DNA of 64,000 nt from positions 372,001 to 436,000 of the forward strand of contig OX597816.1 in assembly GCA_951406725.2 (NCBI GenBank). Direction: 5' to 3'. Under the pieces are notes generated by a model. That model was not told where the DNA came from. It searched no databases and saw only the letters and a program-made list of their open reading frames with translations. The DNA is from Octopus vulgaris. Taxonomy: Eukaryota. Both the position numbers and the translations under genes were made by a program. Positions 1,417 through 61,316 of the stretch are shown one piece after another. The stretch's first letter is position 1, and every line of letters begins with the position of its first letter.

Positions 1417-1621
1417 TGTAACAGGAAGGACAGCAGCCATCAGTGTTTGCCGGATGCTGACATTGCAAATCAGGACAAGAGACTGATTGACAGGTGACTT
1501 GCGAGTTTTGACAGATACATTCTTCACATTCGTTATGGCTTAAGAAAACCTCGGCTTCTTTGTAAGTTTTCCCTTCATATGAACAAGTTGAACCATCTGC
1601 ATCACAGACAACGGAACCAGC
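1417..1621 (-). CDS. Exon 21: end of half-VWC9 and VWC10
   Basis: tttcag|GCT GGT...TAC A|gtaag; 205 nt, phase 0-1; AGSVVCDADGSTCSYEGK...ECEECIC...DGCCPSCY. Confidence 0.9.
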
Positions 1622-1889
1622 CTGAAATTTTAAAAAAATGTTTCTCTCTTTAATAATCATATTTTTGTTGAAATATACTGCCTTTGTTTCAATTTTGAAA
1701 ATTGGGAAGGATTTAGAAAATTAACTTTATCATTATGAAGCTTGTGTTTGGAACATAAATTACCATGATGTTTTGATGAAAGGCTCCAATCTAAATAACT
1801 TCAAATTGTTTATTTTTGACATTACACAAAAATTAATTCTGAAAAGTTACTTCTTACTTCTAATTATTTATTTCACTTGTTTCATGCTC

Positions 1890-1921
<32 letters not shown>

Positions 1922-3379: not shown

Positions 3380-3431
<52 letters not shown>

Positions 3432-6400
3432 GTGCCTCATTGTATCGATGTCAGGTGATAGTTGTAAATGAGCATCAACATCAGGTAAGTGGTATCATTC
3501 GTTTTCAATCTTCCAAGAAAATGATGTCTGGAGAGAAATATTAACTTCCTTGGAAAGAGATTAGTGTTGGCAAGGCAACAGGAAAGGCACCTGGTAATAG
3601 GAAATCTGCCACACCAATTTTTATGTGATTCATCCGAGCATGGAAAAGTGGACATCAAAACACTGATGAAATAGCAACCAGATTATAAGTTTAAAAGTAA
3701 AAAGCAGAGATTTGTTTGCAGAAAAAACAAAAGAAATCCAGAGATAAATATGGTTTAAAGATAGAAGTAGAAGAACATCTCTCTGAAGCACCAACAGGAA
3801 GGAGAGCAGAAATTCTAGTAACATAAGAAGATATAAGGTAGCATTAAGCAATTGCTGAATTACAATGGGATCTTTTTATGGTGGAATTTAGGCAAAAGGT
3901 TGGGTCTAGAAACGTAATTTCCAGAAAAAAATGAAAAGCAGGTGCACATTTACACCTGCCTAACATCACACTTGATGCTAGGGTACAAATCTCCCAAAGT
4001 AATCTAAATCAAAATTTCAAGTTAATTTATGTTCCAAACATCAGTTTAATAAAGACCAAAAGTTATTTTACTAAAGTCTTCAGTATTTTCAAAATTTAAT
4101 TCAAACCAAAGGGAGTTTTTGTTTCAAAAGAAATAACAAAAGTGTTCGACTTACCAAACATTCACATGTTCTTGTTGGAAGTCGAGGGTCAAAAAATCTT
4201 TGCTTGTCTCGGAAGATTCTCCGGTCATATTCACAAAAATCACAAGTTGGACAGCAGCGGTTAGTTTCTCGAGCTGGGTGAGAACATGAGATTGGAGGGC
4301 ATTCTTTAACTCTACAAATAATCTGTCTGTTCTACAAGAAAAATGTCAAATTTTTTTTTTATATAATTTTAGTTTTACAAAATGGAAGCAAATTTTTTAT
4401 AATACAAAGTCTACTGACTTTTGTCATCAAATTAATTTTACTAAATGTTTTTAACTATTTTATATCATTTCATAAAGTGAAATCAAAATCAGATTAGTAT
4501 ACTACTGATCAATAATTCATTAAAAGAATCTACAGTTATAATCTCCAGTGAATGAGTAGGTCTAGAGTTTACCAAAAGAAATCTAATTGAATTTTTGTCA
4601 TGTGAAATCATAAAAAAGTAAAGAAGGAAATTTCTTACTAAACAGATGCATGTGCGACAGTCATCTTCTGGGTCATCGAAGTTTTGTCCTTCTAAATAAT
4701 AAGAACCTCTTTCCGAATGACAACCACTTTCACAGACTGGACAACACTGGTTTGGAAGTTGCATAGGATTTGAACAATTTAAAAACGGACATTGCTTTCT
4801 TTTACATGAAACTTTTCCATCCTTCAAGAAACAAAACAAAACATGAATTAAGTCAAACACTATTTTATCAATTTTAAAAAAATTTTTACAGAATTTTTAG
4901 CTTTCTTATTTCAGTCACTGGAGGAAAAGCAACACCTATGATCTTTTGCAGGGCCTCCATAACTGGAAGGGAGGAAGAGAGTAAGCTATCCTCAAACCAG
5001 ATATCTAGCCTGAATGCTTGCAACAATGTGGACTGCTAAAAACACCCTCAGGCCAGGTGGTGATATGATATTAAACTAGGCTACAAATTTAATCTTACTT
5101 CCCAGAAACCAAAACAGTCCCTCCAATAAACTTCCAGACTATCAAATTCCTCCACAACTCTGTAGCTGATCTGAGGCTGTGGTAGAAAACATTTTCCCAA
5201 AGTGCTACACACTGGAATTGACCTAAACCCTTATAGTTACAAAGTGAACTTGTTAACCACACGCACACACTCTTACTTTTGTCCAAATTGTTGTTGTTGC
5301 CATCCTTTTGTCTCGGAAGGCAATGGAGTTGCGCATAAACTAATCCAGTCTGGTTTTTATATTTCATGTCCTTTCCAGTTTCCTCCCCAGTTTTGCACAG
5401 GCCTGGGCTGCATGCAAGAAAATCCTGGGTAGCCCAATCGTCAGGATTTCTCTCTCGACCTTACTGACGTAATCCAAAGGAGTTCAGAGCATTATGTTTG
5501 GAAGCAGCTTGGTTGCAGAAGCTGCCAGAAGAGTGTCGAGTTGAACACTAAACTGCCTACGGGGCATCACTCCGGATTTCTTTGAAGGTTGTCTCCTTTC
5601 CGTAACCCTGGACAGGGGCCCATACCAGGTACTGTCAGCTAAGCCCAGAACTCGTCATGAAGAAAATCACTACCCACTACCTAAATATAGATGTTTTCGA
5701 TCTAGTTTGAATTTTTTGCCATCAAATTGGAATTTTTCAGTTGGTGCTCAAGCCTTGAAAAAGAAAGAGAGTTAAACTGCATCAGCCGTAAGGGAATGCA
5801 TGTCTGTCTTATCTGACTCGTCCAGTAGAGCCCACCAATTGATATCTGAAAAGTTCGATGAAATAACTCATGAACACTGCCATAGCTTCTACCAAAAGAT
5901 GCTTCAACATATTTACATCGTCGACCGGTCTGAACAAGGGGAGATAATAAACAAATGATTCTTTTCCTATTACCTCCCCTTGTTGAGACTGGTCGTCGTA
6001 AAAGAACATCTTTTGGTAGAAGCTGTTGCAGTGTTCATGAGTTATTTCATCGAACTTTTCAGATATCAATTGGTGGGCTCTACTGGACGAGTTAGATAAG
6101 ATAGACATGTGTTCCCTAACGGCTGATGTAGTTTAACTCTCTTTCTTTTTCAAGGCTTGAGCACCAACTGAAAAATTCCAATTTGATTGCAAAGAAGTCA
6201 AATTTGATTGAAAAGAATTCAAATTTGATGGCAAAGAATTCAAACTAGATCGAAAACATCTATAATATCTTTAAAAAAAAAACACGAAAGCAAATATTTA
6301 CGCATTGTCCTCAGCCACTCACTTTTATTTGCCTCATATCTTCAAGGCCCAACCTGACATCTCATCAATACCATTTAGTCTTTTTTCTCCTTTCAGCTCC

Positions 6401-9400
6401 ACCCTTGTAACTCCCACTGTTCCTTTTATTATGTGAATAACTGTGTGACTCCTCTACAATAAAAAACTTGTTCTAGCCCTTTCTCTTGAACTTTAACCCC
6501 TCATCCCATAGCATAAAGCGGTCTTCCTCTCTATTATAGCCCCATTTGATTGATGGGGATCTTAGTCTTGTTGGTTGCATGGTGACCTCACTAACGTTGG
6601 CACCATGAAAAACCACCCTGTCCACACTGTTAAGTGGTTGGCATTAGGAAGGGCATCCAGGCATAGAAACCACACCAAAGCAGACATTGAAATATGATGC
6701 AGTCTTCAAACCTACTGAATCCTGTCAAATTATCCAATCCATGCCAGCATGGAACATGGATGTCAATGGTGATGAGGACAAAGGCACGGATGGGCATTTG
6801 AAAAGTTTGCTTCCCAGCCAAATGGTTTCAAGTTCAATTCCTTTTACAATAGCCCAGGAATGATTTCATAAGTGGAAACTGAAAGAGGTCCTTGTATATG
6901 TGTGTATAGGTGGGGTGGGTCGTAGAGTCTTGGTTGTATGATTAAGAAGTTTACTTCCCAATTATATGGACTGAAGTTCAATCTCAATGCATGAACCCTT
7001 GATCAAGTGTCTCTACCACAAATGTTTTTTTCTTGGTATAATTGTATCAAGTCCCACATGTAGAAAACAAGTTCGCAAAAATTTTATAAAAACTCCGGAA
7101 AATAAAAAAGTTCTGAGGGATTATAATGTCGTGCGTAATTCTATGATTTCATGTGAAAACACAATTGCTATTTTCAGAATGCTGACACAATGTGCAGTCA
7201 CGCACAAAATGACAGCTTTGAAACCCTATTTTTGGACTGGGTGAAAATGATCAAACTTTAAACCTCTATAACTTTTTTTAAATATTTTTCTGGAAAAAAT
7301 TGAATAATTCTAGCAATTTAGCTTCGAAAGGTATATTAATGTGCCAAATTTTAAAATTTTCAATAAACTTCAATTTTTGAAATGCTGGTAGCCAAACAAA
7401 CTAGATCCGTATTTGCTCCAGGAAAGACGTGTCATCTGACTCTGCTCTATCGATGACTTCTCTTTGGGAATACGATACTACCTTTCAGACGCCATCTATC
7501 ACTACCTTCATTTCGAAATTGATGTTCTTTAAGACTAACATTTCAAAATGTCGATTCCATCAAATTCCACAACTTGATTCTTTGAAAGATGAATTGATTG
7601 ATGAGGCTTTAACTACATATTGCAACCATTTAGAATCATTGTACGATGACATGGTGGAGCGATTTCAAGATGTTATTATGCTGAATATTCCAAATTGGTA
7701 TAGCAATCCGTTTGAGGTCGATGCAGTCGATAATGTCAGAATTTTTATTACACAGGTGGGCGAGGGAGCACTTTTTGGCCAATAGGCGGGCAATATTGCA
7801 ATCTGGCATGAAAAGTTTGGGAAAAACTGTTCTACATTGAATAACCATTATTATTACCGCCACCTTAGCAAAGGTGGAGGTATTGTTTTCAGTCGTGTTT
7901 GTCCATGGTCAAGATATCTCAAGAACCGCTGGATGGATTTGGATGAAACTTTCAGGGATGCTTGGCCTTGTAACTGGCACGAACTGATTAGATTTTGGGA
8001 TCGATCTGGTACCAGACAAGGATTCTGGATTATTTTTCCTGCTTTTTTTTTACTTAATTTTTGAGAGTGGTCTGGTTCATTTTTAGTATTCTCATTTGTG
8101 AGAGCAGTCGACTTTATTTCATCTATTCTCATTTTAAAAGTCATCTCTGGTTAATCATTGAAAGGATATTGATGTTGCCTTGGCAGAGGTTTGCACTCTC
8201 TGAGTGCTCTTGTTATTATTATAATCACTACAGAACTGTATATTTGGAAGAAATGACACTTACCTTACATGTACACACTTTGCAAGGGTCACCATCAGGT
8301 AATGTAAAGCTTTGATTATTGTAAAAGATCCTCCTTAAATAATAACAGTTTTCACAGACAGGACAACATTGATCTGGCATCCTTGCAGGGTGACTACATT
8401 CGGTAGGTTTGCACTGGTCTTTTATGTACAAACATTGTATGCTGGGGACCTGAGCAAAGAGAAAAGTGTTAATATGAGGAAACGTAAATTTTGATCAATC
8501 TAATGCGTGTGTATGTGTGTGGAGCTGGTTATTATTTAAGTGGGGATTTTCCAACAGGAAGCCCAAGAAAACTCTGTCCTATGGAAGCATGAAAAGAAAA
8601 GACATGATGACGATAGTGACAACAGTGAGGAATTGTCAGCAAGACAGGGCGCATCATACTATCGCAAACAAAATGATTAAACAAAACAAAATGATAAAAG
8701 CCACTGAAGACATGATCATACAACACAAAACATTCCAAAGTGAAATAGGCCAGGTTATCTTAATTAGGTCAGGTTATCTTAATGGATGTGTTTTCAGATC
8801 TAAGCTATGAAAAAAGGTCTTTGAATTGGTCAATCTGTTCAAATAATGGTAGCTAAAAATTAATCAGAAATCAGTTTAAAAGACAAACATTGAGATTTTT
8901 TTGCTTTTTTTTTCTTATCTTCAAACCAGTTTCCATTTAATAATATATTCATGGAACAAATGCATGTGAATGTTTCTTGTTTTACCTGTTTTGAGTCAAC
9001 TTTGAGAAGGTAGTGATTGCTTTTCTGATGAATTTTCAATTTATGAATGTCAGCATTTAGAAAAATGCCAAAATTAACAGTGTTTAAACCCATTGGGGAA
9101 TTTTTTATCTTAAAACTGAGAGTCAATATAAAGAATTTTTAAAGGCTTTGAAGGAGCATTAATCTTTTGTCGAAAAACCAAAGGCTTGCTTTGGAAACAG
9201 TGATAAGGCAATTCTGGACAGTGCAAAGGGTGAAGCGACATTTTTAATTAATTTAGTCCCTTGGGGGTAACCTTTGCACTGAACTATGCTTGGTGAGCCA
9301 ATGAGAAAATCCCTACATGATTTTGCCATGTTCTAGAAATAACAACCAATATTCCTTCAAATCACACTGTCTTACAAAAAAAAAAACCTTGCCCAATGTT

Positions 9401-12400
9401 GTCCTGGTTTCACTGCACCTAGGAAAAAACCAGGGCGGTTACGGCTAGAATGCTTTTGATCAAAGCCTGTCCAATCAGCTGCCTCTTCTATTCACCTGAA
9501 GTTATAGGACCCTGCTTAGGCTTTTCATCCTGCAAATTGTAAGGTGATCTTCATTAGTACTGATACCTCCAAAAAAAGTATCCAGTGCATCCTATAAAGT
9601 GGTTAGCATTAGGAAGAGCATCAAACCAGAAAAACTCTGCCAAACCAGTGATTGGAGCTCAACACACTCCTCTGGTTCATTGGATCCTGATTAACCATCC
9701 AACCCGTACCAGCATGGAAGACATGTTAAATGACAATGATGTAATTAATATCATCATCATCATCATCGTTTAACGTCCGTTTTCAATGCTAGCATGGGTT
9801 AGACGATTTGACTGAGGTCTGGCGAACCAGATGGCTGCACCAGACTCCAATCTGATCTGGCAGATATTCTACAGCTGGATGCCTTAAAATATATATATAT
9901 AGTTCATCTCTATAGCTACGTGTGTATATGTATACAATAACAGAAGTAATAACAATAACAGCAGCATGCCATAGCAGTAGAAATAGTTACATCAACAATT
10001 TTCTAATACACAGGGTACAGACAAAATTATTTCTTCTAACAGAATGGAAAGATCCTCAGGGGTTAGTTTTAAGGGGTATATTTGAAGAATAGAAGTTATA
10101 TAACTTACTAAATGATGTTCTCCCACAGAATTGATTTCTTCTTTCACTTGACAACTGCACTGTAAACAAGGATCGTTGGAGTCCTTAACTGTTTCTCCTT
10201 CACTGAATACTGTACCTTTGAATTCGCAGAAGGGTTCACACTGGGGACAACACTGTCCTGTAATATTTCTGCTACGTGGACACTCCAGTTTGGGACATTG
10301 CTTCTCCCTGCAGAGCACAATACCTTTCAAGAAATAATAACAGGGCTACAGATTGGTAACATTGATAGAAAGAAATAGAAATGAATACCTGACTTCTTTT
10401 TTTTTTTACATTATAATACAATTGCTGTCTACCTCCCACCCTGCATCTCTTACTCTCACCCCATATGCTCTTACAAACACTCACCCACCCGCACCCCTAG
10501 TTCTCACCTCATACCTGGATTTGCAGTGGCTGCTGATCCTTCTCACTCTATTCTAAATGCATCTGTATAGCTCCTCTACAACAAGAACCTGCTCACCCCA
10601 TTTCTCTCGTCCCTTCACACAAATCCCTTGGTTTTCTAGCCTTGCAAAGCTGTATGACAACCTCAGCAATACTGGTAGCATGAAAGAAAGAATCCAATCC
10701 ACTCTATGATGTGGTTGGCATTAGGAAAGGCATCTAGTCATAGAAATTATGCCAAAACAGACACTGGAACATGATGTAGTCCCACATGAAACACGGACAT
10801 TAAATGATGGTAATAACGGTGAATATATAGTCATATAAAGTCCTATTTAACATTGTTGCGTACACTCAGAGGGGGTAAAACATGCTGTGGAAATGGTTTG
10901 GTGTTATTAGTGGTTATGATAGCCATAATAACACACAGATGCATACAGCCAACAGTCTGATCACATCATTCACAGCGAACTAATGTCATCTCACACATAC
11001 TGACTAGGAGGAGATTTGGTTTTTTTTTCTTAAGACAATTTCTACAGAATGTATTTTTCCATGTCCAAGTCTCTATGAATATGATAAATATGATGGAATC
11101 TATTTTCTGAACAGTTGTAATGTTGATTGTACCAGAGCACCTACCACACAAAAACTGTTTTCCCCTCTGATATTTGCTCACCTCTTATGTATTCATAGCT
11201 TACTCTGCATATATCTTATGGAATTTCTACCTATGCCTTTCCTACAGATTGAGCAGGGCCATTTACCTGAGGGGATTTATGATTTGTTTGCTTTCCTACT
11301 TTCTAAGACCTTGGTTTTTGCGAGGTTAGCTCTAAGGCCCTTTGATTCTAGATCTTGCTTCCACACCTGAAACTTCTCTAGTTCAGGTAGGGATTCAGTT
11401 ATAAAAACAAGGTTATCAACATAGAGAAGCTCCCAGGGGCAGCCTGTCTTGATTTCCTCTGTTATTGCCTGGAGGACTATGATGAATAAGAGAGGGCTGA
11501 GGACTGATCCTTGGTGAACCCCTACTTGTAACTTGAATTCATTATACTCATTGCCAACCCTCACCTTACAGACAGCATCCCTGTACATGATTTGTACAGC
11601 TCTCACCAACCATTCGTCTATCCCTAGTTTCCACATTGACCACCAGATAAGGGATTGGGTGACCCTGTCAAAGGCTTTCCCCATGTCAACAAAAGCCAAA
11701 TACAGAGGTTTGTATTTCTCCTGCAGATGTCTTAGCAGAAATATAGCATCAGCAGTGCTTGCCCCTGGCACAAAACCAAACTGCATCTCATCTAAACTAA
11801 CTCTCTCCCTAATTAGTTGGGCTCTGACTCTCTCTGTAACTTTCATCACCTGATCCAACAATTTGATACTTTTGTAATTATTCCTATCTGAGGCATTGCC
11901 TTTACCTTTGTAGCAGTTGACTATGGTGCTGCTGCTACACCAGTCATTGGGTATGACTCCTTTGTGTAGCACATGGTTAACTATACGGGTGACTAGCCCA
12001 TAACCCACACCGCCCGATATTTTAAGCATCTCAGTGGTGATACCTGATGGACCAGGGGCTTTCCTTATCTTCATATCCTTAATTGCTTTATCTACCAAGA
12101 TACTATCAATTTGGATAGCTGGTCCCTCAGTTGGATCAGCATTTAGCAGACTCTCCTCCCATTCATTCTCCACATTCAGCAGTCTTTCATAATGGCATTT
12201 CCAAGCCTCTTTCTTTGCAGGATCATTAAATACATTTTTTAAATATAAATAACAGTTAGTTTATGGGAGCAGCAGAAATATAAACTACCAAGCAAAGACC
12301 CTAATATGTGGTAGTTACATTGTCTGCTCCCTTTTTTTACCCTTTTTCATTGAGCTGTCTGTAGTGCACCCAAATGCTATGCAATGAACTCCTTAATATT

Positions 12401-13863: not shown

Positions 13864-13899
<36 letters not shown>

Positions 13900-16800
13900 G
13901 GCGAGCTGGCAGAAACGTTAGTGCGCCAGGCGATATGCTTAGCGGTATTTTGTCTGCCGTTACGTTCTGAGTTCAAATTCCACCGAGGTCGACTTTGCCT
14001 TTCATTCTTTCGGGGTCGATAAATAAAGTACCAGTTACACACTGGGGTCGATGTAATTGACTTAATCCCTTTGTCTGTCTTTGTCCCCTCTATGTTTAGC
14101 CCCTTGTGGGCAATAAAGAAATATATACATATATATATATATATTCAGGAGAGAGTAAAACAGTAAAATGACAATACACTCAATAATGAATATAAATTTT
14201 CATAGGTTATATTTTATTATAGACTAGCACACCCATGTTGGCCAAAATGTTGACAATTTTATTAACGATAGAAAATAGCACATCAATACAATGAGGGACA
14301 CTTAATACATGTCAGCAATCTAGTAAATATATATACCAGGAGTAGTAGAGGGAGGACAGGGGAGGAAGAGGAGGAAAGAGAGAGGGATAGAAGGGATGAG
14401 GAGGGTGAGGACAGGGGGAGAAGGCCAAGGGAGGAAAGCTGTATCTCAAGAATTTAAAAAGTATAACATCTTCTATGCGCAGTAATATATATATATAAAA
14501 AGGGCTTGAAAAAGAAAGCCATGGAACTGAAAAGCTTAAGTTTAGTTATTTTACAAGATTTTATATTTTCTTTGTATTCATCATCATCGTTTAACGTCTG
14601 CTTTCCATGCTAGCATGGGTTGGACGAACCAGATGGCTGCACTAGGCTTCAATCTTGATCTGGCAGAGTTTCTACAGCTGGATGCCCTTCCTAACGCCAA
14701 CCAAGAGTGTAGTGGGTGCTTTTACATGCCACCGGCACGGGGCCAGTCAGGCAGCACTGGCAATGACCTCGCTCGAATCTTTTACACATGCCACCGGCGC
14801 GGGTGCCAGTAAGGTGACGCTGGTAATGATGATGCTCGAATGGTGTCTTTTACGTGCCACCGGCATGGAGGTCAGATAGTCGCTCTGGCAATGATCACGC
14901 TCGGATGGTGCTCTTAATACCCTACTAGCACGGGGCTCAAGTGCCAGTAGTGCGACACTGGTAACGATCACACTCGAATGGTGCCTTTTAAGTGCCACTG
15001 GCATGGAAGCCGGTTAGCCGCTCTGTCAATGATTACACCCATATGGTGCTCTTTGCACCCCGCTAGCACGGACGCCTGTCATCAAATTTGATTTTGATTT
15101 TTGATTTTTGATTTCACTTGCCTCAACAGGTCATTGCAAGCAGAGTTTTAGTGTCCAAAGAAGGAAAAGGTACGCATAAGTGGGCTGGTAATGCCCCTGG
15201 CATAGGCCACGAGATTATGGTCTCATTTGGCTTGCCGGATCTTCTCACGCACGGCATATTTCCAAAAGTCTTGGTCCCTAGTCATATCCTCGGTGAGGCT
15301 CAAAGTTCGAAGGTCATGCTTCACCACTTCATCCCAGGTCTTCCTGGGTCTACCTCTTCCACAGGTTCCCTCAACCGCTAGGGTGTGGCACTTTTTCACA
15401 CAGCTGTCTTCATCCATTCTCGCCACATGACCATACCAGCACAGTCGTCTCTCTTGCACACCACATCTGATGCTTCTTAGGTCCAACTTTTCTCTCAAGG
15501 TACTTACACTCTGTCGAGTATGCACACTGACATTACACATCCATCGGATCATACTGGCTTCATTCCTTGCAAGCTTATGCATGTCCTCTGCAGTCACATC
15601 CCATGTTTCACTGCCATGTAGCATGGCTGTTCGTACACATGCGTACAGCCATGCTACATAGCAGTATTCTGTAAGATAATGAAAACAGTTACTAAAAGGT
15701 GACAGATGCTGAACAAATAATGATGAATATATTTCTCTCCATAATCTTAAAACATTTTATTCTAAAATGGAAGTCAGTTCTAGCTGGCATGTTCCATATA
15801 TAATGAAAGAAATAAAAATCTGCAAAGCTGAAATACCTTCAATACACATGCAATTCGTACAGGTATTGTTGCTTGGTACAATATCTCCATAGCTGTAACT
15901 CATGTGGTCTTCTTTGCAACCTGAAAATAAACCGTGAATTACATAGTAAATATGAAATTTCTGCTGGGAATTCTTAATACATTTCTGCTTAGTTATGTGT
16001 GAGAGAGAGAGAGAGCTGCTCATGGTCTTGTGGAGGTGTCTGAATTTACAAAAGGTTACTACATTAAATATTTTGAAAGTTTTGTATCAAAAACATAAAT
16101 GCAATTTCCCCAATGTAGTTTTAAGTATATTTGGGCTGTGGTAATATAATATAGAAGAGTTAGTTAGCCTGGAATCTAACTTTAGAGGAGCTCAAGGTAG
16201 ATTATCATCAATCCACACTGACATAGTTTGAAAGGATCCAGCTGGTCCAAGGCCCGCATTGTGCTCCAATGCCTGGTTTCTATGACTCAATGCCATTCCT
16301 ATTGCCAGCCTCTTTACAGAGTGCACTGGGTGCTTTTTAGCGGACACTAACACAAGTGAGGTCACCATGCAGTGTACAGGACTACAAAACTTGAGAGAGG
16401 TGACTTTATGCTAAGAGATGAAGGATTCAGGTGAGAGAGAAGGAACCAGAGCAGAACCGGTTCCTTGCTGTTGAGAAGCTACATGACTACTCACATTTTA
16501 CACGAGAGGGTGGAGGGTTGGTTTGGAGAAGAGAAGAGAGGGCTGACAAGGTGTCAGTGTGGACCCTTAATGTAAGAAGTGAGTTGAAGTGAAAGAGAGC
16601 AAAAGAACCAGGAGTGTTGATGAGGCAAGGTTAAAAACGTGTATGAGATGATGAATAGGAATGGATGAGGCGATGAATAGGAATGGATGAGGCAGTGAAT
16701 CGAGTGGACGAAGAACAAGTTTAGGTAATGAGACAAAGGGATTCAGTAAGGAAGTCAATAATGATAATCATAAATTAGGGTTTTTTTTAATTATTAAATC

Positions 16801-18861
16801 CCTCCAAATTCTTGATTATTTTCAGAATTTATTGAAACATAGGAAGTGTAGTTGGTTAGAAATTCGGTCATGAAAGAGTTAAACCATCAACATTACTCTA
16901 CTTTTAAATTAGAAATAATTTAGAAATACTTTAATAAGAAAATCAAGTGAAAATAACACAGTCATCTCACAATACAATAATTGTTTCTGATTTAAATACA
17001 AAGCCAGAAATGTTGAGACAAAGAGGTTAGTCAGTAGCATCAATCTCAGTGTTTGATGGGTACTTTATTAACTGTGAAGGAATGAAAGACAAAGTTGGAG
17101 GGATTTGAACTGAGAGGGGGGCAAAAACATTGAAACAACTGCCATGAGACATTTTCTTTCAAAGCTCTTCTGCCAGCCCATCTGCTTAACCCTTTGCTAC
17201 TGACCCTTACTCCAGGCTATATAATACAAACATCCTGTCTAAAAGGAAATGCTCCAACAAAATTTCACATTAATTTAATCTAAATATTAACAAAATGGTT
17301 TCCCTAAATTTTACTTTATCTTCAAAATTAATTAAAACACAGAGTATTTCTATAATAATATGCAAACGAAAGAGTTAACTCACAATACAATCACACAGCA
17401 CAAAGTATATCTACAATCAACACATAGAGAAGACTTCAAGTTCAAAACAAAAACACAGAGACAAATAGATAACCCGAAAAGCCCAGGACTGACAAGTATT
17501 TACAACATACAGGACATAGCAATGCAAAGCAATTTATGAATAAAGTATTGTAAATATAATAGAATATAGAAAATCAAAAGAAAACAGCACATACCAAAGC
17601 ATACAGAGCTGTATTCAATAATGCAGACAAGGTCAAAAAAGAAAAAAAATTTAAACCACAGGATATTAAGAGCAGAGATAAAAATCAAAGCTTCAAAAGT
17701 GAAAAGTGTCTGTTATGAAATGCAGCAGACACGATAATGAGAGAAAGCTTAATTACTCAACTGAATGGGATTTTACCTTTGCACTGAGGACAGCATTTTC
17801 CTTTTGGTGTTATGACATTCCTGCAATCAAGTTTATCACAGGAGTCGACTGTTTTACACAGTATATCCCCTTGGCTACAGTAACATTCTTGGCATCCATT
17901 TCCAGAAAGTGTGAAGACATCATCGTTCAATACTATTTTCTCATCAACCAGGCAGTCTACAAGAAAAACAGAATTGTTTTCAGATTTACAGAGATATTTT
18001 TTTATGCTTTTAACATCCTGGTAACACACACACACACACACACATATCAGCACAAATATATAGATCACATGACGTTAATTGATAGTAAATGACATTTTTA
18101 CATTTGCTTTCTACGCTGGAATGGGTTGGATGGTTAGACAGAATCCAATGGCTTGGAGGATGACATCTTGCACCAATGTCTCAGTTTTGACATGGTTTCT
18201 ATGGCTAGATGTTTTTCCAAATGCCAACACTTAACAGAGTGTACCAGAAACTTTTCCATGGCACCAGTACTAGTGAGGTTGCCTTGTAACTCACAAGACC
18301 AACAGGCTTCTTAGCTCAAGAGTGGGAACAGGAGATGGTGCGGGGGCTTTATATAAGGTGTTGGGAAGGTAATGTATGATGGGAGGATTAGGAAGAGGTT
18401 TGTTGTGGAGGAGATTCGTGGTTGCTTTACATTTTAGATGGGTGGCTGGAGGGGTGCCAGAACATAATCTCAAGCGGGTATGACCAAAGAAGTGAATAGA
18501 AGACAGCATAGAGTGAAAGATGGCTATAAGCAAGGGTTGGATGCAGTCAGATGGCTGCAGGAACATAGGGAAACAAAGCAGACCGGTACACTACAGTTGT
18601 GTTTTTAAATGCTTTTGTCAGAAAAATCAGTTTTTTAAAACTAAAACATGAAAAATATATAAAGAATACATTTTCTTGAAACATTAATAAATTATTCACA
18701 TAAAAAGAATAAAATAATCAGTTGCCTGAAATATGTTACCATGACAACGAGGACAACATTCTCCATCAGGAAGTACCGGGTATTTACACTCAATTGATGG
18801 ACACACCTTTTGCTCACATTTGACAGTGCCATTCTGCAATATCAGAAGTTAAAATACTCAA

Positions 18862-18893
<32 letters not shown>

Positions 18894-20903: not shown

Positions 20904-20942
<39 letters not shown>

Positions 20943-29900: not shown

Positions 29901-29964
29901 CAGTTGAACCGTCCAACCCATGCTAGCATGGAAAACGGACGCTAAATGATGATGATGATGATGA

Positions 29965-30000
<36 letters not shown>

Positions 30001-41342: not shown

Positions 41343-44300
41343 GCCAGGAATTGGTCAGAATAGAATAAATGAATTTTTTTTAGAAAATCAATAAATCAAA
41401 ATTGTTATTGTTTACCTCGGATCAGGAACAGGAGGAACCCAAATTTTGTCAAAGACATCATCAAATGAATAAGGATTTTTCAGTCTGTCCAGAGCCATTA
41501 TTGCCAAAACTTCTGGAATGTTTTTTTGCCGGTTCAACCAATAAACTTTATACATCCACTGAGGAAGCTGTGACACTGCAGGACACAACCTTGGAATATT
41601 TATCAAAGAATGCATGGATTTTATCTCGCTAAGTTTATTTTTAAGTGACTGGTATATGATTATATAAAACGGGCCATTGAAATAGTAATTGCAACCAAAG
41701 CGATTGAATCCATCCTTGTCAAAACCAAAAATGTCAAACCCTTTGTTATTAAAACCCAAGTTATTTAATCCAAGTTCATTGAACTCATTCTTTCTGAATG
41801 TAGAGACATGTTCACTGAAGACATTCGTTTTGATTCTACTGAAACCATATCTGTTATGACCAGATCTGTCATAGCCAGCAACATCAAAGCCGTCAGAATT
41901 GTAACCATCTTTGAAAAAAAGATCTTTGTCGTAGCCCATACTATCAAAACCTTGTCGAGAAAAGCCTTCTTTGTCAAATCCCTCATTATTATATATTCCT
42001 CTGAGATCAATATAGCCATCAATGTTTATTCCATGTACATCAAATCCATCTTTATCATAACCATTTTTATCAAAGCCATGACGATCATAACTATCACTAT
42101 CATATCCATAGGTCTTTATTTTGGTCTGGTTACATGGTGATCCAAATGGTAAATTCAGATAGGTTATACAGATTTGTTTTTTGCAATCTAATACATCATC
42201 AGGAGTAACTTTGAAAGGTTCCATAGGAACATATCGAAAATTAGGAGGAAATCGCAGCAAACCTTTTTTATGACTCCTCTGCCAATCATCCCAGAGTTTA
42301 TCAATAAAAGCTACATGTGAATAGAAAAGGGGGTCGTAAGCACTGAGAGGTGAGTCCATGTGGCCTCCAACCCACATCTGGAAAAGATGCAGCATTGATT
42401 CCATGTAAGCTGAGAAATCACTAAAGGTACTTTCCTGTAAAGCCAAGTAAACATGAATTGCGTCTGGAAGATGTACTGAAGAATTGAAGTGTCTACGGAG
42501 ACAAGGTGTCCAATATGGTGGATGATAAGACTTAAACGGATGATATCTGACACAGTCTGTTCCATTTTCACCATTACCACCAAAAAATTTTGATGACCAA
42601 ATAACCGATTTATTCAAGACACCAATATCAAGGGTCCAATCATAATATGGGATCACAACACCACATTCAACATCTTGCATCAACTTTTCAACCATAAACA
42701 AAAAGTAGCGATGCCATGGCAAAAATAAAGGATTTCCGGAAGCTTGAGGAATATATTCTGAATACATTTCAGCAAATTCAAACCACACAGATTTACCATT
42801 TCTTTTTTCATGCTGTAGATTCTGGATGACAAGTTGGTAACGCTTTATTTCATCAAAACTCATGTCACGAATCTCTTTGCGTTGTAAATGTTTTTGACAA
42901 GAATTCATTTCTGAAAACCCTCCCAAGTGACACTGAAATTTCTCACAGCCTACATTGAAATCGTCCCAAATCCTATGGAACTGATTATTAAACCAACACA
43001 TACAATTTGGCTTGCAACTGACATCTTCACATTTTTTTCCTGGAGAAAAACGAACAATTTGAACATCATCTTCGGTTTCCAAATGTTGACACCTTTTCCT
43101 TGTGGTTCTCATGCAAGTATACTTGAAGCCAGCATGACGTCCATAAATATCCAAACCATCTCGGTTAACACCTTCACAATTGAACCCTGCCCTGTAAAAA
43201 GAAACAGAAATAAATTTCCTTAATCTGTTTGAATCAATTTTATTTTACATCACAACATTCCATCACATATACACTGGTTTAGAATGGATTTAGAGTAATG
43301 GTATCTTAGTTCTGTTAAAGTTAACTTAGCTTTTCCTGCCAATTAATATAATTTTGAATAGCAAGGCATTCTAATGGCCTGCCAGTAACGAGACTCAAAA
43401 TTAAATAATTGGCATTTATAAGGTTACCAACAGGCCACCAAAATAGCCGGCAGGTAACAATACATTTTGTCTGAACTCTATTCTTTTTCTTTTTTTTATA
43501 TTTTTTGAAAGGGGAATCTTTCTCAAAATATTATAGGATCACTAAATAACTAACATATGGTAATACATCATCTTTCTCTATATTTTCATTTATTGGCATC
43601 ACCTTACCTATTTTTCATCAATTAGATATTATTACCTCAAAATTGTTATACAAATCAGTGATGCAGGTGAGAAATTAGGCAAAATAAGAATGATATTCTG
43701 TGATTTTTATGTAATCATTTGCCTCATCATTTCTTTTCATTAAAATGCAATTTTATCTTGAGTTAAAACCCCAAAAGATTACAAATAATTTGTTTTGAGG
43801 CCCCGTGTCGGTGGCACGTAAAAGCACCATCCGTTCGTGTCCGTTGCCAGCATCGCCTGGCCCCGTGCTGGTGACACGTAAAAGCACCATCCGTTCGTGG
43901 CCATTCGCCAGCTCTGTCTGGCACCTGTGCAGGTGGCACGTAAAAAACACCCACTACACTCGCGGAGTGGTTGGCGTTAGGAAGGGCATCCAGCCGTAGA
44001 AACACTGCCAGATCTGACTGGGCCTGACGAAGCCTTCCAGCTTCACAGACCCCAGTTGACCCGTCCAACCCATGCTAGCATGGAAAGCGGACGCTAAATG
44101 ATGATGATGATGAATAAATGACAACCAATGGAAAAATGCAAAGAAACTGAAAACCTGGTGATTCTTGTCAACTTAAAATTATGAATTAACTGGACTAGGA
44201 AACAAAAAAAAAAGAATAGTTTAACTTACTTTACACTAATCTGTACATTGTGTCTATGTACATGCAAGTATGTGTCCCCAGGCTTCTTAATTCTTCATTA

Positions 44301-47300
44301 CCTCACTTTCCTTAGCTATGAAGAACAATTATCAGGAATTATATTTATTCTGGAAATGTTATTAGTGATAAAGTTGCATCTTATCCACAAGTTTGATCCT
44401 TCATCTACTTACCCAAGAATACCGCTTCCATTATTCATGGTCCTCTGAGAACTACCATTTATATATTTAAACATCAAATGGGAAATTTGCTGATGTGTGC
44501 AAAACTTTGACAAGCTGAGACTAACTTACTAGAGGAGCACTAAGCAGTGTTGATTCAAATACAGGTGTGTACAATTATATTTAACGCATTTGTGTTTCAA
44601 GAGAGAAATTCTCCTCCACAGACAAAGTGTGTGAGAACCACATCAATGACATCATTAGACTGTAAGCTGCATGTTTCAGCATTGTTGTGCTTCATCAGCA
44701 GAGACACTGAATCCACTGTTCACAGCCCATTAAGAACTACAATTCTTAAACAGTAAATGTTACATTTGCTGATGCATGCAAATCCTTGTCAAGCTAGAAT
44801 TAACTAATTAGAAGCACATTAGGCAGTGTTCACTGAAATATAGAGAATCTCTCACCTGAGAGATTTCTGCACTGAGAATCACCAGATTTCAATGTACTTA
44901 GGCCTATTAACTACACATATATCTTAATCGTCATTGCTTAGTGAGCTTTCCTATAATAGACATTTAGAGTTTTGATTTTTGCTATTAATTATTTTAATGC
45001 ACTGAATTGGATAATAGGGAATCACCACCGACAATACCATCATCTTTACATCCACTTTTTCCATGCCTGCATCAGTTAGAAGAGACTTACTGAGCCAGTA
45101 TTCTAATGGCTGAATGCCTCTCTTGCCGGCGGCCCTTATTTATTATTTTTTTTAAGGTATATTTTATTCTGCTGATCTTCAAACACCATAACAACTCAAG
45201 CCAGAGGGTGTGCTGTTTATGTAGCAGTGCTGTGAAACATCACCACTGCCCCAGCTGTGTCAACAGGGAGACAAACATTTACACACACACACACAATGGA
45301 TTCCCATCCCAATGCATTGGGTAACTGAAGCTGAAGACGCTGGTCCAGAGTGCCACAGAGTGGTATTGAACCTGAAGTCGTGTGGCTGTGAAACAAACTT
45401 CTTAATCACAAAATCCAGGCTTTTGCCATATTACACATTCATATTCCTAACTAAACCAACCTTTATCCTGTTGTGCATGGCTTAAGGGACAGGGTTAGGG
45501 TATTCAGGTCACAATCGTAAGGTCATGAGTTCGATACCTGGTAATGTGTTGTAGCCTTGAGCAAGACACTCTATTTCACTTTGCTCCAGTTCACTCAGCT
45601 GGTGAACATGAGTAGTACGTACATTTCAAACGGCCAGCCTTATCACATTTTGGGCGTCACCAAATCTTCCTGAAATCTACATTAAGGGGACACATGTCTT
45701 TGGAGTACTCAGCCATTTACATGTTAATTTCATGAGCAAGCAGTTTGGTTGATTGGATCAACTGCAACTCTGCAACCAACAGAGTGCCAGGTTTTTCCTT
45801 ACTTTAGTAGAATGTTCTGAACCAAAATGACAGTGACACCTGCCCCCCTCCTCTCTTTCTCTCCTTTCCTCACCCAACAAAGTGCAACTACTAAAAATAT
45901 TAGATTCTTCACTCCTCATAGCAACAGAACTCACCAAATTCTCGAATGAACCTTCCTATACACCTACTTTTGATAGGAAACACTGTCACTACCTCCTTCA
46001 GAGACAGGATTTCATTTATTGCCTTGTTTGTGGTTTGTACATGAGCTTCTGCGTGTGTGTGAGGGAGAGGGAGAGTTTGTACCTTGTCTTGACGTCTTGT
46101 GATAGTCGTAAATGAGCATCACTGTCGTAGAAGCAGTGTTGTTTGTTTTCGGTCTTCTGTGAAAAACCTGATGGCTATGGGGGAAATAAATTTGCTTAGA
46201 AATAGGTGAGGGTTGACAACAGAAGGGGCACCTGGTCACAGAATATGTGCCTCAACAAATTCCATCCAACCCATACAAGTATGGAAAAACAGACATTAAA
46301 ACAATGATGATGAAAAAGAATCAATAAATAGTAATAAGAAATCTCACCTGTTGTAACCTTCTTCATCGTAGCCATCATCATCATAGTCGATCATGCCATC
46401 AAACTCACCTTCTCTGCTATATCCCGTCATGTTGAATCCGAACGGATCGTAACCTTCAGAATTGTAGCCTAATCTATCATAACCAACAGAGTTGAATCCA
46501 TTTTTGTCATAACCTGCAATAGAGAAACCATTAGTGTTCACAGATCAGAAAGAAACAAAATTACTTTATGATAAAAACTAAAACTGTAAAAAAGTTAGTC
46601 AAAAGGAAACAAAAGACCAGTTTCCTGGTTTCTCTGATGTAAATATATTTTTCTCTGGATGCCAGTCCGTCGCAGGACCAGCATCCCATCCAGAGATGCA
46701 TTTTTACCAGCTGAGTGGACTGGAGCCACATGAAGTGCTTTGCTCAAGAACACAATGCATCAGCCAGTCCAGGAATTGAAACCACAATCTTACGATCACA
46801 AGTCCAACACCCTAACCACTAGGCTATGCATGTCCACCAAAACTGTATAAGATTAACAGAAACTATAGTGGATTAACCCTTTTGATACCAAACTGCCTGA
46901 AACCACCTCTGGCTCTGTAGTACAAATGTCTTGTTTTCAAAAGTTCTGAATTAAATTCCTCCACCAAACCTTAGTCACAATTTATGTTCCTAACACTAGC
47001 TTAATGATAACTAAGTTATTTTACTAAATTCTTTGTTATATTTAGAATTAATTGAAAGAAGCACACAGCATCTCAACAGAAATATGGTAACAAAAGGGTT
47101 TACAGAAGCTATGTTAAACTGATTGTCTTTTAATCCTTGCAGAGATATACATCCTGGAGACAAACTCTCCAACAGTCACCATATTTTCAATGTCTTGCTT
47201 CTCTGAGCATTGACACACTAAACTTTCAATATGTAGATAAATGACTTGGTAGAATCCCACAAGAAGATTATCCGTTACCTTTCCAACAATAATTTTGGTC

Positions 47301-47833: not shown

Positions 47834-47865
<32 letters not shown>

Positions 47866-50743
47866 TAATAATAACAATAAAAAAAATTATCTTACGCTTT
47901 GAAAAATCTTTACACAGGCAAGAAATAGGAAATTTTTTTTTAAATATATTTATCCACCATCATTTATTAATAAGATAAATGAAACATGAAGCCTACTCAT
48001 TTACAAAAGAATCACAACCAAATATAGAATTCACTGCTTTTATGATGAGACTCATTTACAAGACACCACACCATCAAGCCTACACAATACATGCAAGAGA
48101 ATAACTTGTTAGATTTGTGTATAAAATGGGAAATGCCTCACCATGCCAATCATAGCCATTCTTCTTGAATCTGTTGATTCCCATCTTCATCCCAGTTTTC
48201 GCATTGAATATTTTCCTTAACTGGTTGTAACCTTTTGCATTAAACCCATATCTGAAAGTTAAAATTTTGGAAAATTATTTATTTTAATTATTTCCATTTC
48301 TTTGGAGTAGGTGTTGGTTCAAATTTTTAGGGGAATTTATATATTTGAATTGGATCATTGTATCACTAGTATTTATTATATTGGCCCTGCAGAGGATGGT
48401 GAATGAAAGGAGCATCTATGTTCAACAAGTTGCAGAGAGTCCACTATTGTAGTCTCCTCCAGCTCTACCACACCAGCAAACAGATTATCAGAATTATAGA
48501 TTCATAGACAAGAGTAAGATTGTATGATTCTTCTGACTTTCTCATCTGATCCATTAATCATTCTCATATACTTTTCCAGGTCACATGGAATTCATTGAGG
48601 TAGATTTTCTACAGCTGGATGCCCTTCCTGTTACCAACCCTCACCTATTAGCAAGCAAGATAATATTTCTCTATGGCATGGAATACTGATAATGAAGAAC
48701 ATTGCTTACATAACAGTGGCACTCATTTACAACTATTGCATGATGTCAATACAACACACACACACACACACAACAGTCAGTTTCCATCTACCAAATCCAC
48801 TTACGAGGCTTTGGTTAGCCCAAGGCTATAGAAGAAATTTTCCCAGGGTGTTACACAGTGAGACTGAACTTGAAACCACGTGATTGGGAAGCAATCTTTT
48901 TAACCCCAAAGCCATACCAGCTATTTGTTTGGTGCAGACTACAGGTTCAATTCTTTTTTTGTGGACTGACTTAGATAAGTTGTCAAAAAATTCAAACCAA
49001 GTAAAACAATCCATTCTGATGAGCAGCTAAAATATCAATTAGCTTAAGTAATTGTCAGTTAATAAATAATAGAAAATCCATAGAAACATCAGTACTTCAA
49101 GCAAGAGTTAGAGACCCAGAACACAATAATAGAATCATTAGTGTCTTGTAGCAGAAACAGAAGAAAATTTAGCCTAAAGTCAATAATTTGTGCCATATAT
49201 AAACTTGAAACTGAGACACCAACCAACTGTGGAGTCTTAAATCTGTGCATCTGTAATTTCAGGTTTACATGGGTAGGGGGAAATTTACCAGCTCATCAGT
49301 TTTCTTATCAACTGACTAGCAGTATCGCCCGGCGTTGCTCGGGTTTGTAAGGGAAATAACTATATAAGCATTTTTAGAGAGTTATAGCCAAAAAATAGCA
49401 AAAAATGCATTAAAAATGGAAAAAGTATGATGGTAAATTTTTTGAAAAATCGTTGACTCATCGTAGACATTTTTAGAGAGTTACTTCCCTTATATAATAG
49501 CGAAAAAATGCATTAAAATGGAAAAAAAACGATGGTAAATTTTTTTTTAAATCGTAGACTCATGTAGACGCTTTCTTAGCCATTTCTGTTTTGGTGTCTT
49601 CAAGCCATGAAGTCGTTATTCTAAAAGAACACTGGTCTCCTTGACAACGCATTACGACGTTGATTTCCTTACACTCCCTTCCCCAAAGGTGCAGGTGTGA
49701 GCGTGGACGCCAACTCCGCCGCCATCAACACACGAAAAATTATGCATTAAAATGGAATAAAAAATGATGTTAAATTATTTTTAAAATCGTAGACTCATCG
49801 TAGACGCGCTAATACTCAGACGGGCTCGATATGAATCACGACTATAAGCTACCCGAATTTGGTTAAACTGCACCGCAAAATGTGGGAGTAGTTAGGAATC
49901 TAAATCGAAGGGGACAGACACTCACACAACTACAGTTTTATATATATAGATATACATAGCGCAGTAGTGGTGAGATGTGACAGCAAAGAAAAGCATACAT
50001 TCACTCTCTGCATGCAATTAGACTCGGAAAGTTCGTGAGGAACCCATTGACCCAATTTGCTGACTTTTCCGATAGCACACAGGTCTCAATGAATGGTTGA
50101 ATGACCAAATCCAAGCTTCTCTGCTAGTTCCTCAACAGTTACGATGAGATTTTGTTCCACCAGGGTTTTCAGGATGTCCTTGTCGAGTTCTACAGATCTT
50201 TCAGGATGAGGCTCGTCTTCTAGGCTGTTCCAATATAGCTTTGAAAAAAATAGCTGTTAAAATCGAAATGCACTCTTCAAAACTTGCACTATGAATAAGG
50301 ACAAGATAAAATTACTAACTGCTTTTATAGCAAGTTAATATAAGTAGTTTATCCCATTCCCCTCTGACTTTTAGTTCAAGCTGTTGAAAAAACCGCATTA
50401 TTATATATATATACATACATACATACATACATACATATACACACACTCTCTCTCTCACACACATGCACACATTTATATTCTGTTATTCTTTTATATGTTT
50501 CAGCCTTGAGGTTGTGGCCATGCTGGATCATGTGTGTGTGTGTGTGTGTGTCTATCTGTCTGTCTGTATGTATATATGTATATGTATGTGTGTGAACAAT
50601 AATATTTTCAACAGATGTGTTGCAAATGTATCTGATTGTTCTCAAGCTTCAATACTGTGTGTGTGTGTATGTGTGTGTGTGTGTGTATGTATGTATATGT
50701 ATGTATGTATGTATGTATATGTATGTATGTGTGTGTGTATGTA

Positions 50744-50794
<51 letters not shown>

Positions 50795-53700
50795 ATGTAT
50801 GTATGTATGTATGTATGTATGTATGTATGTATGTATGAGTGTTCCTCAAATCACTATCTCTGGCTATTTACTCTCTTCCAAGAACATTTTCACTCACACT
50901 TATGTGTTAGCTTCCCATACATTTTACTCATGTATCTATCAGCGTGATAGAGAGAAACAAATATTACATCTAGTTTCACTTTATTCGTTGCCCACTGTGT
51001 GTGTGCGTTTGCGTGTGGTGTAAACCAGACTAAGAAAAGCATTTGACACACACACCAGAATGTGAGTTTTCTGTAAATTTTGCTTAATTGGAGTTGAAAT
51101 TTTAAAAACTGGACCTGGCATGACGCGATGCATTGTACTCTTAAAATTGCTAGGTAAATTGTAATTGAAGAAATCCTATATTGTAGATTTGTATAACTCC
51201 CAAAGGGAGGCAGATAAAATCTGCCTTTTATAATAAGAGATATTCACACAAATGAAACTATTGCTGTCATCAACATCACTTTACATTTGTTTTTCCATGC
51301 TAGCATGGGTTGGATGAATCACCATAATCCGAGTGATATCCCATTAAACGCTATCATTCCCAAAGACTAAGTGCTCAAGTGTGTTATCTGATTTGCTTTC
51401 TGCAACTTGATGCCCTCTCTAACATCAATGGTTTCACAACATGTACTGGAAGCATTTTCCCATAACACTAATACAAGAGAGGCTGAATAACCCTTAGTGA
51501 TAGAGCGAAAGTAAATCTTAAGGCTTAAAAGGATAATACAACAAACAATTAGAAAAATTAATCTTACTTATCATAGCCATCAGGACCAAAGCCAATGGTA
51601 ACTGCTGGATTAAGTTGCTGCCGGTAACAACAAGCACCAACAACACATTTTTTCTGGCAATCTGTAAGTGTCTCAAATAAATTAGCATTGCCCCCACAAC
51701 CAGAATAATCAAACTGGACACATTTTGATCGATGGAAGTCAAAGTACCAACGACTCACATTCCTTGAACAGGAACCTGTAAAAGATAGAATGATGTTGGG
51801 TTTTTACATCTATGTCTTTATAAATTGATAAATAAGTGTATAAAAAAATTATAGATAGCAAAAGGAAATATTTAAAATCCTTATCACAATATGTATTGAT
51901 GGAGTTCTCTATGACTCACATTCCATAATGTCTTGTGTACCCCAGGGTTCAGTTTTGAACCCCACATTCATCAGAGACCCACTCACCGTCACCTTCAAGC
52001 ACTTATACATAAATTATATCACCCTTCATTCTGCTCTAAGTCTCCAACAACCAAAAATTATCCCCATGCAGCCTAGTCACCTCTCCACACCAAACCTATA
52101 ATGATTCCATGAATAGAAACCTCGCAAACATTCTTCAATGAGATTTTATCAATTTTGTCTTCTTCAAAAGCACAAAAGAAATCAAAACATTAAAATCAAG
52201 AAAACATTACTGCAGCCCATTCCAGTCTTAAAACATGAGCAGCATGCAGCTAGAACCCTGAATGTCACTACAACTGATTGGATTCACTATCTTGGTGAAG
52301 GTATATCCTCAACATAACAAAAACTGATGCAGCCAAAGACTGGCATTCCTCCACTTCACAGTTGGAAAATAATTCCCAACAACACTGAGCCATTGTTGCT
52401 GCCATATGCACAAACAAAAAACAAAACTGCATTCAAAGGAAAGGTCAGAAGAGTAGGTGTGAAAGAACACCACATCCTGCAAGCTCAGGCAAATACGATT
52501 ATTATAGCCAACTGTATACCATTCTTAACTTATATACATCACTGAAAGGCATCCTAATCATGATCATCATCAACATATAATGTCCAGTCCATGCCAGTAT
52601 GGGCTGGATAGCTGGACAGGAGCTGGCAAAGTCAGGGGTTGCACCAGGTTTCATGATCCGATTTGGCATAGTTTCTACAGCCCTTCCTAATGCCAACTAT
52701 TTTACAGATTATGTTTAGCTCCTTGTGGGCAATAAAGAAATAAGATTGTACTTGGTACTTTTTACATGACACTATCACCTGTGCTTTTTATGTGGCACCA
52801 TCATCATCCTCATCATTATCGTTTAACATCCGTTTTCCATGCTAGTGTAGCAATATTGCTATCTTCACTGTTTGAGAAAAACATTAGGAATGATCTCGTT
52901 TGAGATTACAAACATCTTTGGCTAGTTTAACCTTGTTGTGTCCACTGATCTGATTGGTTAGCATCTAAGCGCAGTCTGTTTCTCTACTTATTTCGCACCA
53001 GTGTGTAAACTGACCAATCACGGCTTTCAGATAGGATCTTTCAATTGAGCCATCTTCACTCCATAAATAGGCTAGTATTTCCACGATTCACCGTCTTTCG
53101 ACTCAAGACCTTCTAAGGTCTGGTTGGAGACCTCACAGAGCTTACTCAACCATGTTCCAGTTCAAAAGACAGACGTCAGCCAAGCCAACTATACTATAAA
53201 GACGCTATTGTATAGCAGCAACAGACAGAACGTCATCACCAACGTCATCTCCATCTCCGGAGATTCAACTTGTACACAAGATAAATACCCAGATTCATCT
53301 CACGCTGTTTGTGTGAAACTATGACCATGGAAAAACAGTTGCAGAATATATACTTGAAAGAACATCTATATCAAGAGAAACCTGCTCAACAAGAGACTCA
53401 ACTAATCTCCTCTTCGAGACCCAAATCTTGTTATAGAACTTATTATCGTGTACTACATGAACTGATAAAATAACTCTATCTTAACTCAATATGTTGAGAC
53501 TTCTTTTATGCTCTGTATTTCTGGTGTATTCGCATGCACCTTTATCTGTACCTCCTGTCGCACGCACAAACACACAGACACAAATATTATACGCATGCAT
53601 TCATACCACAACACTACGCTAGTAATCACAACTCACTTTGTACACTGTGAATAAAATCTATCTTCTCTTTATAAAAGTAGAACGGTTTTGGCGTCCTTTA

Positions 53701-61316: not shown

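Follow-up and report, generated by a model that had tools for sequence, protein, structure and literature searches.

Chordin is built from CHRD domains placed between a few VWC repeats. Vertebrate KCP is described, in the available parts of PMC6750614 and PMC10315795, as a secreted cysteine-rich protein that augments BMP signalling and inhibits TGF-beta signalling, and the same texts mention valve defects in Xenopus mutants. Mammalian KCP consists of 18 cysteine-rich repeats and a VWD domain (accessible text of PMC10315795), and was compared with the octopus protein studied here by this description alone. Type-3 copper sites require six histidines, arranged as CuA H1-H2(8)-H3 and CuB H1(3)-H2-H3 (available part of PMC3658974). 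The tunicate protein Tuphoxin (EGF-TSP1-tyrosinase) is a secreted protein and, like the octopus protein, a mosaic of a tyrosinase with matrix domains. Unlike the octopus protein, it has an intact copper site, carries TSP1 instead of Kunitz and VWC, and is reported as tunicate-specific in the portion of PMC9395347 that we could draw on.

The octopus gene is already modelled in databases as kielin/chordin-like, and is less new than the initial annotation of this DNA held. Public models from molluscs, Lingula, chelicerates, sharks, coelacanth and salamanders share the same architecture under the names 'kielin/chordin-like', 'chordin isoform', 'zonadhesin-like' or 'uncharacterized'. These labels are automatic, and we found no functional or evolutionary study behind them. 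A search of mostly open literature, with supplements outside its scope, yielded no published study of this kielin-tyrosinase architecture, one passing mention aside; the word 'kielin' is absent from PMC3658974 and PMC11608171.

We analysed a window of 64,000 nucleotides of the Octopus vulgaris genome (contig OX597816.1, positions 372,001 to 436,000). Exon borders were set with a full-length Argonauta homologue as guide, after six-frame translation and a Pfam search. On the minus strand, from 61316 to 1417, the window contains 21 exons, all 21 with AG acceptors and GT donors and with compatible phases at 20/20 joints. Their spliced frame measures 5031 nt and 1676 codons with 0 stops; the 21 phase-compatible exons in one frame that had been proposed are confirmed, with the codon count corrected from about 1664. 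The translation is identical at 1676/1676 residues, without gaps, to residues 923-2598 of the public 3875-aa Octopus vulgaris model P0370, named 'chordin isoform X2' in the database. The O. sinensis and O. bimaculoides sequences differ from it at 6 and 75 residues, respectively, and it is 80.4% identical to the Argonauta protein P0240, again without gaps. A frameshift in exon 6 was considered and rejected, as the frame of this exon matches Argonauta at 92%. The 8-mer peptides of P0370 gave 1543 exact matches in the six frames, all on the minus strand and all within residues 922-2598, and this exact 8-mer search found no additional P0370 exon in the 64-kb window. Because the matches are confined to residues 922-2598, the gene continues beyond the window on either side, and the window encodes 43% of the protein. 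An Rfam search of the window gave 0 matches.

The domain order of P0370 is LamG/TSPN, coiled coil, VWC1, two copies of a cassette, about 25 VWC domains and VWD. Each cassette comprises EGF, Kunitz, GYD repeats, a small VWC-like module, a tyrosinase fold, further GYD repeats, and two modules that we named cysteine modules A and B, and both copies sit between VWC1 and VWC2. Of these parts, the window covers the end of copy 1, the complete copy 2 and 10 of the VWC domains, while LamG/TSPN and the coiled coil lie outside it; Pfam detects 22 VWC stretches in P0370. EGF, Kunitz, tyrosinase and VWC domains were each found by Pfam in the expected exons, which bears out their proposed linkage in a single frame. 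That earlier reading covered a smaller extent of the protein, and lacked the second cassette upstream and the VWD tail downstream.

All exons are on the minus strand. Copy 1 closes with GYD pentapeptide repeats in exon 1 (61128..61316; residue ~923 of the 3875-aa protein), the final GYD repeats and cysteine module A in exon 2 (59896..60138), and module B in exon 3 (56150..56395), where this copy ends. Copy 2 begins in exon 4 (54782..54940) with EGF (Pfam E=5.5e-08) and Kunitz cysteine 1. Exon 5 (51568..51775) encodes the Kunitz domain, a GACC motif and GYD repeat 1, exon 6 (48142..48251) a GYD repeat block and spacer, and exon 7 (46348..46513) GYD repeats. The large exon 8 (41416..43191; 1776 nt) contains the small VWC-like module, the tyrosinase fold (about 42150-42890), GYD repeats and module A. 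Module B follows, with its first half in exon 9 (31527..31621) and its second half in exon 10 (28950..29042), whose phase-1 donor is the 3' border of the cassette. VWC2 starts in exon 11 (24585..24664). The VWC array then continues through exons 12 (22108..22201), 13 (21073..21320), 14 (18740..18833), 15 (17777..17956), 16 (15837..15920), 17 (10109..10323), 18 (8264..8449), 19 (4639..4821) and 20 (4155..4331), all of these except exon 16 with Pfam matches, to exon 21 (1417..1621; residue ~2598). Beyond base 1 of the window, ~15 further VWC domains and the VWD assembly follow.

A satellite at 31636-36384 consists of 74 copies of a 64-bp unit with a higher period of 192 bp; it begins 15 nt from the exon 9 acceptor and supplies the intron sequence upstream of this exon. 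Its unit contains a perfect palindrome of 24 nt, present in 16 exact copies. LINE-type reverse-transcriptase fragments (Pfam RVT_1) are located in introns at 3-434, 945-1397, 11280-12260, 23325-24317 and 56882-57244, and the translations of two LINE-type copies, at 23.3-24.3 kb and 56.9-57.9 kb, resemble one another. A junction of 23258 with 24321 recurs in many contigs and signals an empty site or the end of an element. Furthermore, tandem 60-66-bp units of a dispersed repeat occur at 14715-15071, 28485-28739, 43799-43945 and 62510-63935. This repeat, with very high contig depth at 13.7-15 kb and 29.7-30.3 kb, is likely a common octopus SINE-like family. Contig depth is no guide to expression level or tissue.

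The initial annotation had not recognised the architecture and treated it as an unknown mosaic. Profiles, collinearity and trees identify it instead as Kielin/KCP. Like the Kielin/KCP proteins of Xenopus and mammals, the octopus protein has an N-terminal LamG/TSPN domain, a coiled coil, a long VWC array and one VWD. Profiles built from the N-terminal domain and the coiled coil of the Argonauta protein match Xenopus kielin at 87 and 298, and Pfam Laminin_G_3 was found on the crinoid orthologue with E=1.7e-05, below its cut-off. The single, C-terminal VWD domain lies outside the window (Pfam, P0370 3553-3699) and matches solved VWF D assemblies. From exon 11 onwards the octopus protein aligns collinearly with Xenopus kielin, with 700/2024 identities, and the kielin-like VWC array that had been proposed is accordingly a long tandem array of this family. 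A true chordin was rejected as a candidate since Pfam finds no CHRD in P0370, and the public label 'chordin isoform' is unsuitable.

The octopus protein differs from the Xenopus kielin model by a double cassette of 1603 residues between VWC1 and VWC2. In Xenopus and lungfish kielin the end of VWC1 runs straight into the start of VWC2, and exactly this joint corresponds to the points where the cassette is entered and left in coelacanth, shark, salamander and octopus. VWD-region trees (a quick tree of 49 rows, and one of 29 rows in which the octopus branch is long) largely follow the species tree, and cassette-bearing and cassette-less vertebrate rows are interspersed in them. A topology that groups the 14 rows lacking the cassette was rejected (p-AU 2.7e-52). 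Because the borders are exact and the trees mix both kinds of rows, the long and short forms are the same gene. Judged from these alignments, and from trees calculated without a BMPER/Crossveinless-2 or mucin outgroup, the gene in the window is the middle of the octopus Kielin/KCP orthologue. The only hydrophobic stretch of P0370 comprises residues 58-79, after an internal Met, and corresponds to a stretch at the N-terminus of the Lingula, shark and salamander forms. The octopus kielin would hence be secreted.

For transcript evidence on the continuity of the gene, we compared 4 runs out of the 24 listed, which came from 4 studies, with 11700-31632; the run type ('RNA?') was presumed and we relied on spliced contigs. 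Among the pieces listed, exon 9 was present in 1 of these 4 runs. This was record 15 of run X5, an RNA-type contig of 9524 nt that holds exon 9 (contig positions 6297-6396), exon 12 (6567), exon 13 (6661) and exon 15 (7003). The spacing is exactly that expected with exons 10, 11 and 14 spliced in, so that the junctions 31527-29042 and 28950-24664 agree with the contig. Upstream of exon 9 the contig has 6298 nt, which are accounted for exactly by 5861 coding nt and a leader of 437 nt. The contigs of X1 and X5 both stop at codon 3029.0, which is the branch point of annotated isoform X3, and this coincidence validates the length arithmetic. The junction 41416-31621 between exons 8 and 9 was deduced from the upstream length of the X5 contig and from the public models. 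A contig of run X9, which has a different organism code, has an upstream length that places its start 5 nt ahead of the start of exon 8.

Could two adjacent genes, one tyrosinase-like and one with VWC domains, have been falsely joined? Intron 8 (9.8 kb) is the longest and contains the 4.7-kb satellite, models are split in some genomes (Osmerus, Arapaima), and the joint 41416/31621 was deduced by length. Against this stand the 9524-nt contig, in which exon 9 is preceded by 6298 nt and which ends exactly at a known alternative-splice point, the end of exon 8 in an open phase-2 donor with no stop, and the combination of tyrosinase and VWC in one chain in 23/23 matches of a protein database search. 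The exon 8-9 junction is, moreover, retained in each of the 15 Octopus models listed from a cluster of 16. Two genes are therefore largely refuted and extremely improbable. The X5 contig fits a single mRNA and is by itself not proof of one transcript; together with the identical single-gene public model it supports the claim of one gene. It had been suggested that automated annotation may label the gene kielin/chordin-like or split it in two; the label occurs, and the gene is modelled as a single gene in three Octopus species.

The exon 8 domain belongs to the tyrosinase family (PF00264, E=3.4e-24) and matches the solved tyrosinase 1wx2 (E=1.3e-23); an ESM Atlas search with exon 8 returned generic tyrosinase clusters alone. 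It shares PF00264 and the framework motifs around both copper sites with tyrosinase, catechol oxidase and molluscan hemocyanin. In contrast to these type-3 copper proteins, five of its six copper histidines are replaced: the ligand positions are occupied by Y, S, H, L, Q and V. Five of these positions were checked pairwise against solved hemocyanins, and the first rests on the multiple alignment.

Once 10 proteins had been removed as redundant or partial, 103 tyrosinase domains were aligned. Those of kielin, 57 in number, formed one clade (FastTree support 99) composed of copy 1 (22 domains) and copy 2 (35 domains). None of the 57 has the full six-histidine site or the first CuB histidine, and 56 of them have at most three of the six histidines, compared with a complete set in 39 of the 46 other domains. 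Some orthologues retain 0/6 canonical ligands (copy 2 of Mya, Aplysia and krill; copy 1 of amphioxus). Even so, the fold is well conserved, with 120-124 of 242 residues identical (about 50%) between octopus and shark, coelacanth or salamander; the corresponding values for the VWC array are 203-214 of 581 (35-37%), which out-of-register repeats may have lowered.

On this pattern of residues, the tyrosinase fold in the window is very likely not an enzyme. An active cross-linking enzyme was rejected as a candidate, with five of the six copper ligands missing, and matrix cross-linking is unlikely because these ligands are replaced. The reading that no metal is bound is less safe for copy 1, which keeps a histidine set of its own. 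The tyrosinase folds might instead hold a remodelled metal site, with one Cu or Zn or with a different set of ligands. The cassette would in that case add a sensor of metal or catechol, or an unusual redox function, to a BMP modulator. Copy 1, upstream of the window (P0370 residues 626-870), conserves histidines at five places, two of them new (21/22 and 18/22 domains) and three canonical (17/22, 20/22 and 17/22), and is as such a candidate remodelled metal site. Copy 2 conserves them at four places (31/35, 34/35, 34/35 and 26/35). However, just one of the latter four is a canonical ligand, and the orthologues without any canonical ligand also speak against such a site, which we regard as rather unlikely.

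The Kunitz domain has six cysteines (PF00014, E=1.9e-16). At the P1 position, as known from BPTI, the window has Ser and the orthologues have S, A, G, E, N, D, K, T, Q or P, with a loop of variable length. This variation suggests that the domain has no conserved protease target, and would still be compatible with inhibition. The GYD repeat has the form G-[YF]-[DN]-x-x and occurs in 36 copies; the proposed acidic pentapeptide repeats are pentapeptides indeed, whereas their acidity is only mild (62 D+E versus 44 K+R). An ESM Atlas search with the GYD block gave nothing usable. Most of 120 listed matches were rejected as homologues, because they cover ~25% of the query and this part consists of the GYD repeats. 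The repeat is also found in a snail FERM protein and in many bacterial and metagenomic proteins, in which it is frequently joined to helicase domains; some of the bacterial and metagenomic proteins carry the Pfam domain Decapeptide (PF25296).

The architecture is not specific to molluscs: chelicerates, ambulacrarians, amphioxus, sharks, coelacanth and salamanders have it as well. Named cassette-bearing proteins of protostomes come from cephalopods, gastropods, bivalves, Lingula, Owenia, spiders, a scorpion and horseshoe crabs, together with prawn and krill (partial). Among deuterostomes, the cassette was present in a hemichordate, a crinoid, amphioxus, sharks, rays, a chimaera, the coelacanth, three salamander genera and some teleosts. 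Two copies are found in molluscs, Lingula, arachnids and the hemichordate, copy 1 only in the crinoid and amphioxus models, and copy 2 only in vertebrates. A MetaClust entry of 5988 residues (P0369), with domains at the Lingula positions, has five tyrosinase domains, probably owing to a duplicated assembly segment in the model.

Models that lack the cassette include frogs, caecilians, lizards, lungfish, gar, sturgeons and many teleosts. A count of 119 out of 120 vertebrate KCP matches without a tyrosinase domain was rejected as a frequency, since the search had a length limit of 2837 residues and the long forms measure 3100-3500. Among the named cassette matches (30 proteins named) there was no cnidarian, sponge, insect, nematode, bird or mammal, which is weak evidence of absence. 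Some of the apparent losses may be exon skipping or annotation. In Arapaima, one model is without the cassette and a separate model contains it, and a white-shark model lacks the cassette that 11 of the 13 listed members of its cluster possess.

These cases raise the possibility that the cassette is an alternatively spliced block, and that cassette-bearing animals make both a long and a short, canonical kielin. The 3' border in phase 1, the short form as an exact excision, and the Arapaima and white-shark models are consistent with such splicing. Furthermore, a contig of run X13 has 1718 nt upstream of exon 11, close to the 1677 expected for cassette skipping. This contig either starts inside exon 8 or is a cassette-skipping mRNA; against skipping, X13 also holds 85% of the exon 8 words. 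Copy 2 is kept in 15/15 listed Octopus isoform models, and cassette-less models may also be annotation errors or true losses. Alternative splicing, though compatible with our preferred reading of the gene, is accordingly possible but doubtful.

The best non-animal matches over the tyrosinase region were choanoflagellate proteins. Salpingoeca rosetta, S. urceolata and Hartaetosiga (P0260, P0257, P0266, P0269, P0261) have several large tyrosinases, most of them with Kunitz and a likely anchor. Like the octopus protein, the Kunitz-tyrosinase proteins of Salpingoeca and Hartaetosiga contain, in this order, Kunitz, GACC, GYD repeats, a VWC-like module, tyrosinase and a cysteine module. Unlike the domain in the window, 5 of 7 choanoflagellate domains have all six histidines. 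A C-terminal hydrophobic segment, likely a membrane anchor, was present in all 5 proteins tested, and neither a VWC array nor VWD was detected in the choanoflagellate proteins. The link between these proteins and kielin is drawn from the shared module order and the search rank; in the tree of 103 tyrosinase domains the choanoflagellate clade was not resolved as sister of the kielin clade. A survey of 2013 reported no type-3 copper protein in Monosiga (text available from PMC3658974).

From these comparisons, we propose that a choanoflagellate-like, active surface module of Kunitz and tyrosinase would have entered a phase-1 intron of kielin. The captured module would then have lost its copper site and been duplicated before the split of protostomes and deuterostomes. 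Vertebrates would have retained copy 2 only, and several lineages would have dropped the cassette or skip it. Long kielin with one or two copper-less cassettes is likely to be the ancestral form.

With respect to function, the initial annotation offered two options, a BMP-modulating hybrid and, as its lead idea, a secreted matrix or scaffold protein (egg case, beak, cuticle or mucus). The former agrees with our reading, by analogy with vertebrate KCP. We consider it probable that the octopus Kielin/KCP is a secreted protein predicted to bind BMP-family ligands via its VWC array, with the tyrosinase module as a non-catalytic binding or anchoring unit. In this proposal, the VWC array would bind BMP-family ligands as suggested by vertebrate KCP, and the coiled coil would form oligomers, by analogy with thrombospondins. 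The cassette would, without catalysis, tether the protein to the matrix or to a partner, a role proposed because it is conserved without catalytic residues. This anchoring is the weakest step and one guess among several non-catalytic roles. For the VWC-VWD part taken separately, action on BMP and TGF-beta signalling in the manner of vertebrate KCP seems reasonably likely by analogy.

The alternative is a structural matrix or sclerotisation protein of the cephalopod egg case, beak, cuticle or mucus. Proteins labelled 'kielin/chordin-like' are the most frequent in the Argonaut egg-case matrix according to the accessible part of bioRxiv 10.1101/2021.07.10.451900, and proteins with this label occur in mussel footprints (available text of PMC12993968); the VWD assembly, moreover, resembles those of VWF and mucins. 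However, the same portions of these sources describe the Argonaut egg-case proteins with VWC domains only and tyrosinase as undetected in the proteome, and give 5-15 kDa for the mussel footprint proteins. Sharks, coelacanth and salamanders share the conserved architecture, and the domain has lost the copper site on which cross-linking depends. A dedicated role in egg case, beak or mucus is argued against because the architecture occurs across bilaterians. A matrix or scaffold protein is hence disfavoured and appears quite improbable.

A further proposal goes beyond the predicted BMP-binding protein with a non-catalytic cassette. The ancestral animal kielin might have been a BMP regulator with a captured choanoflagellate-type tyrosinase module turned into a ligand- or metal-sensing pseudo-enzyme, which would be spliced in or out in octopus, sharks and salamanders, and of which frog and mammalian KCP would be the reduced form. 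We regard this as speculative and rather unlikely.

What appears undescribed is that long kielin with one or two copper-less tyrosinase cassettes is a widespread and likely ancestral form. In the papers that we consulted, knowledge of kielin and KCP comes from the frog and mammalian forms, which appear short and derived. A module of 900-1600 residues, kept since the bilaterian ancestor, is unstudied in the literature that we found. Its tyrosinase fold is better conserved than the BMP-binding array, and yet is without the catalytic metal site. A practical consequence is that the number of tyrosinases counted in mollusc and arthropod genomes is inflated by these genes, which also carry the wrong labels 'chordin' or 'zonadhesin-like'. 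For the biology of the family, the gene would be a case of a type-3 copper protein that has become a likely pseudo-enzyme, and of a pre-animal module that may have been incorporated into a developmental signalling protein.
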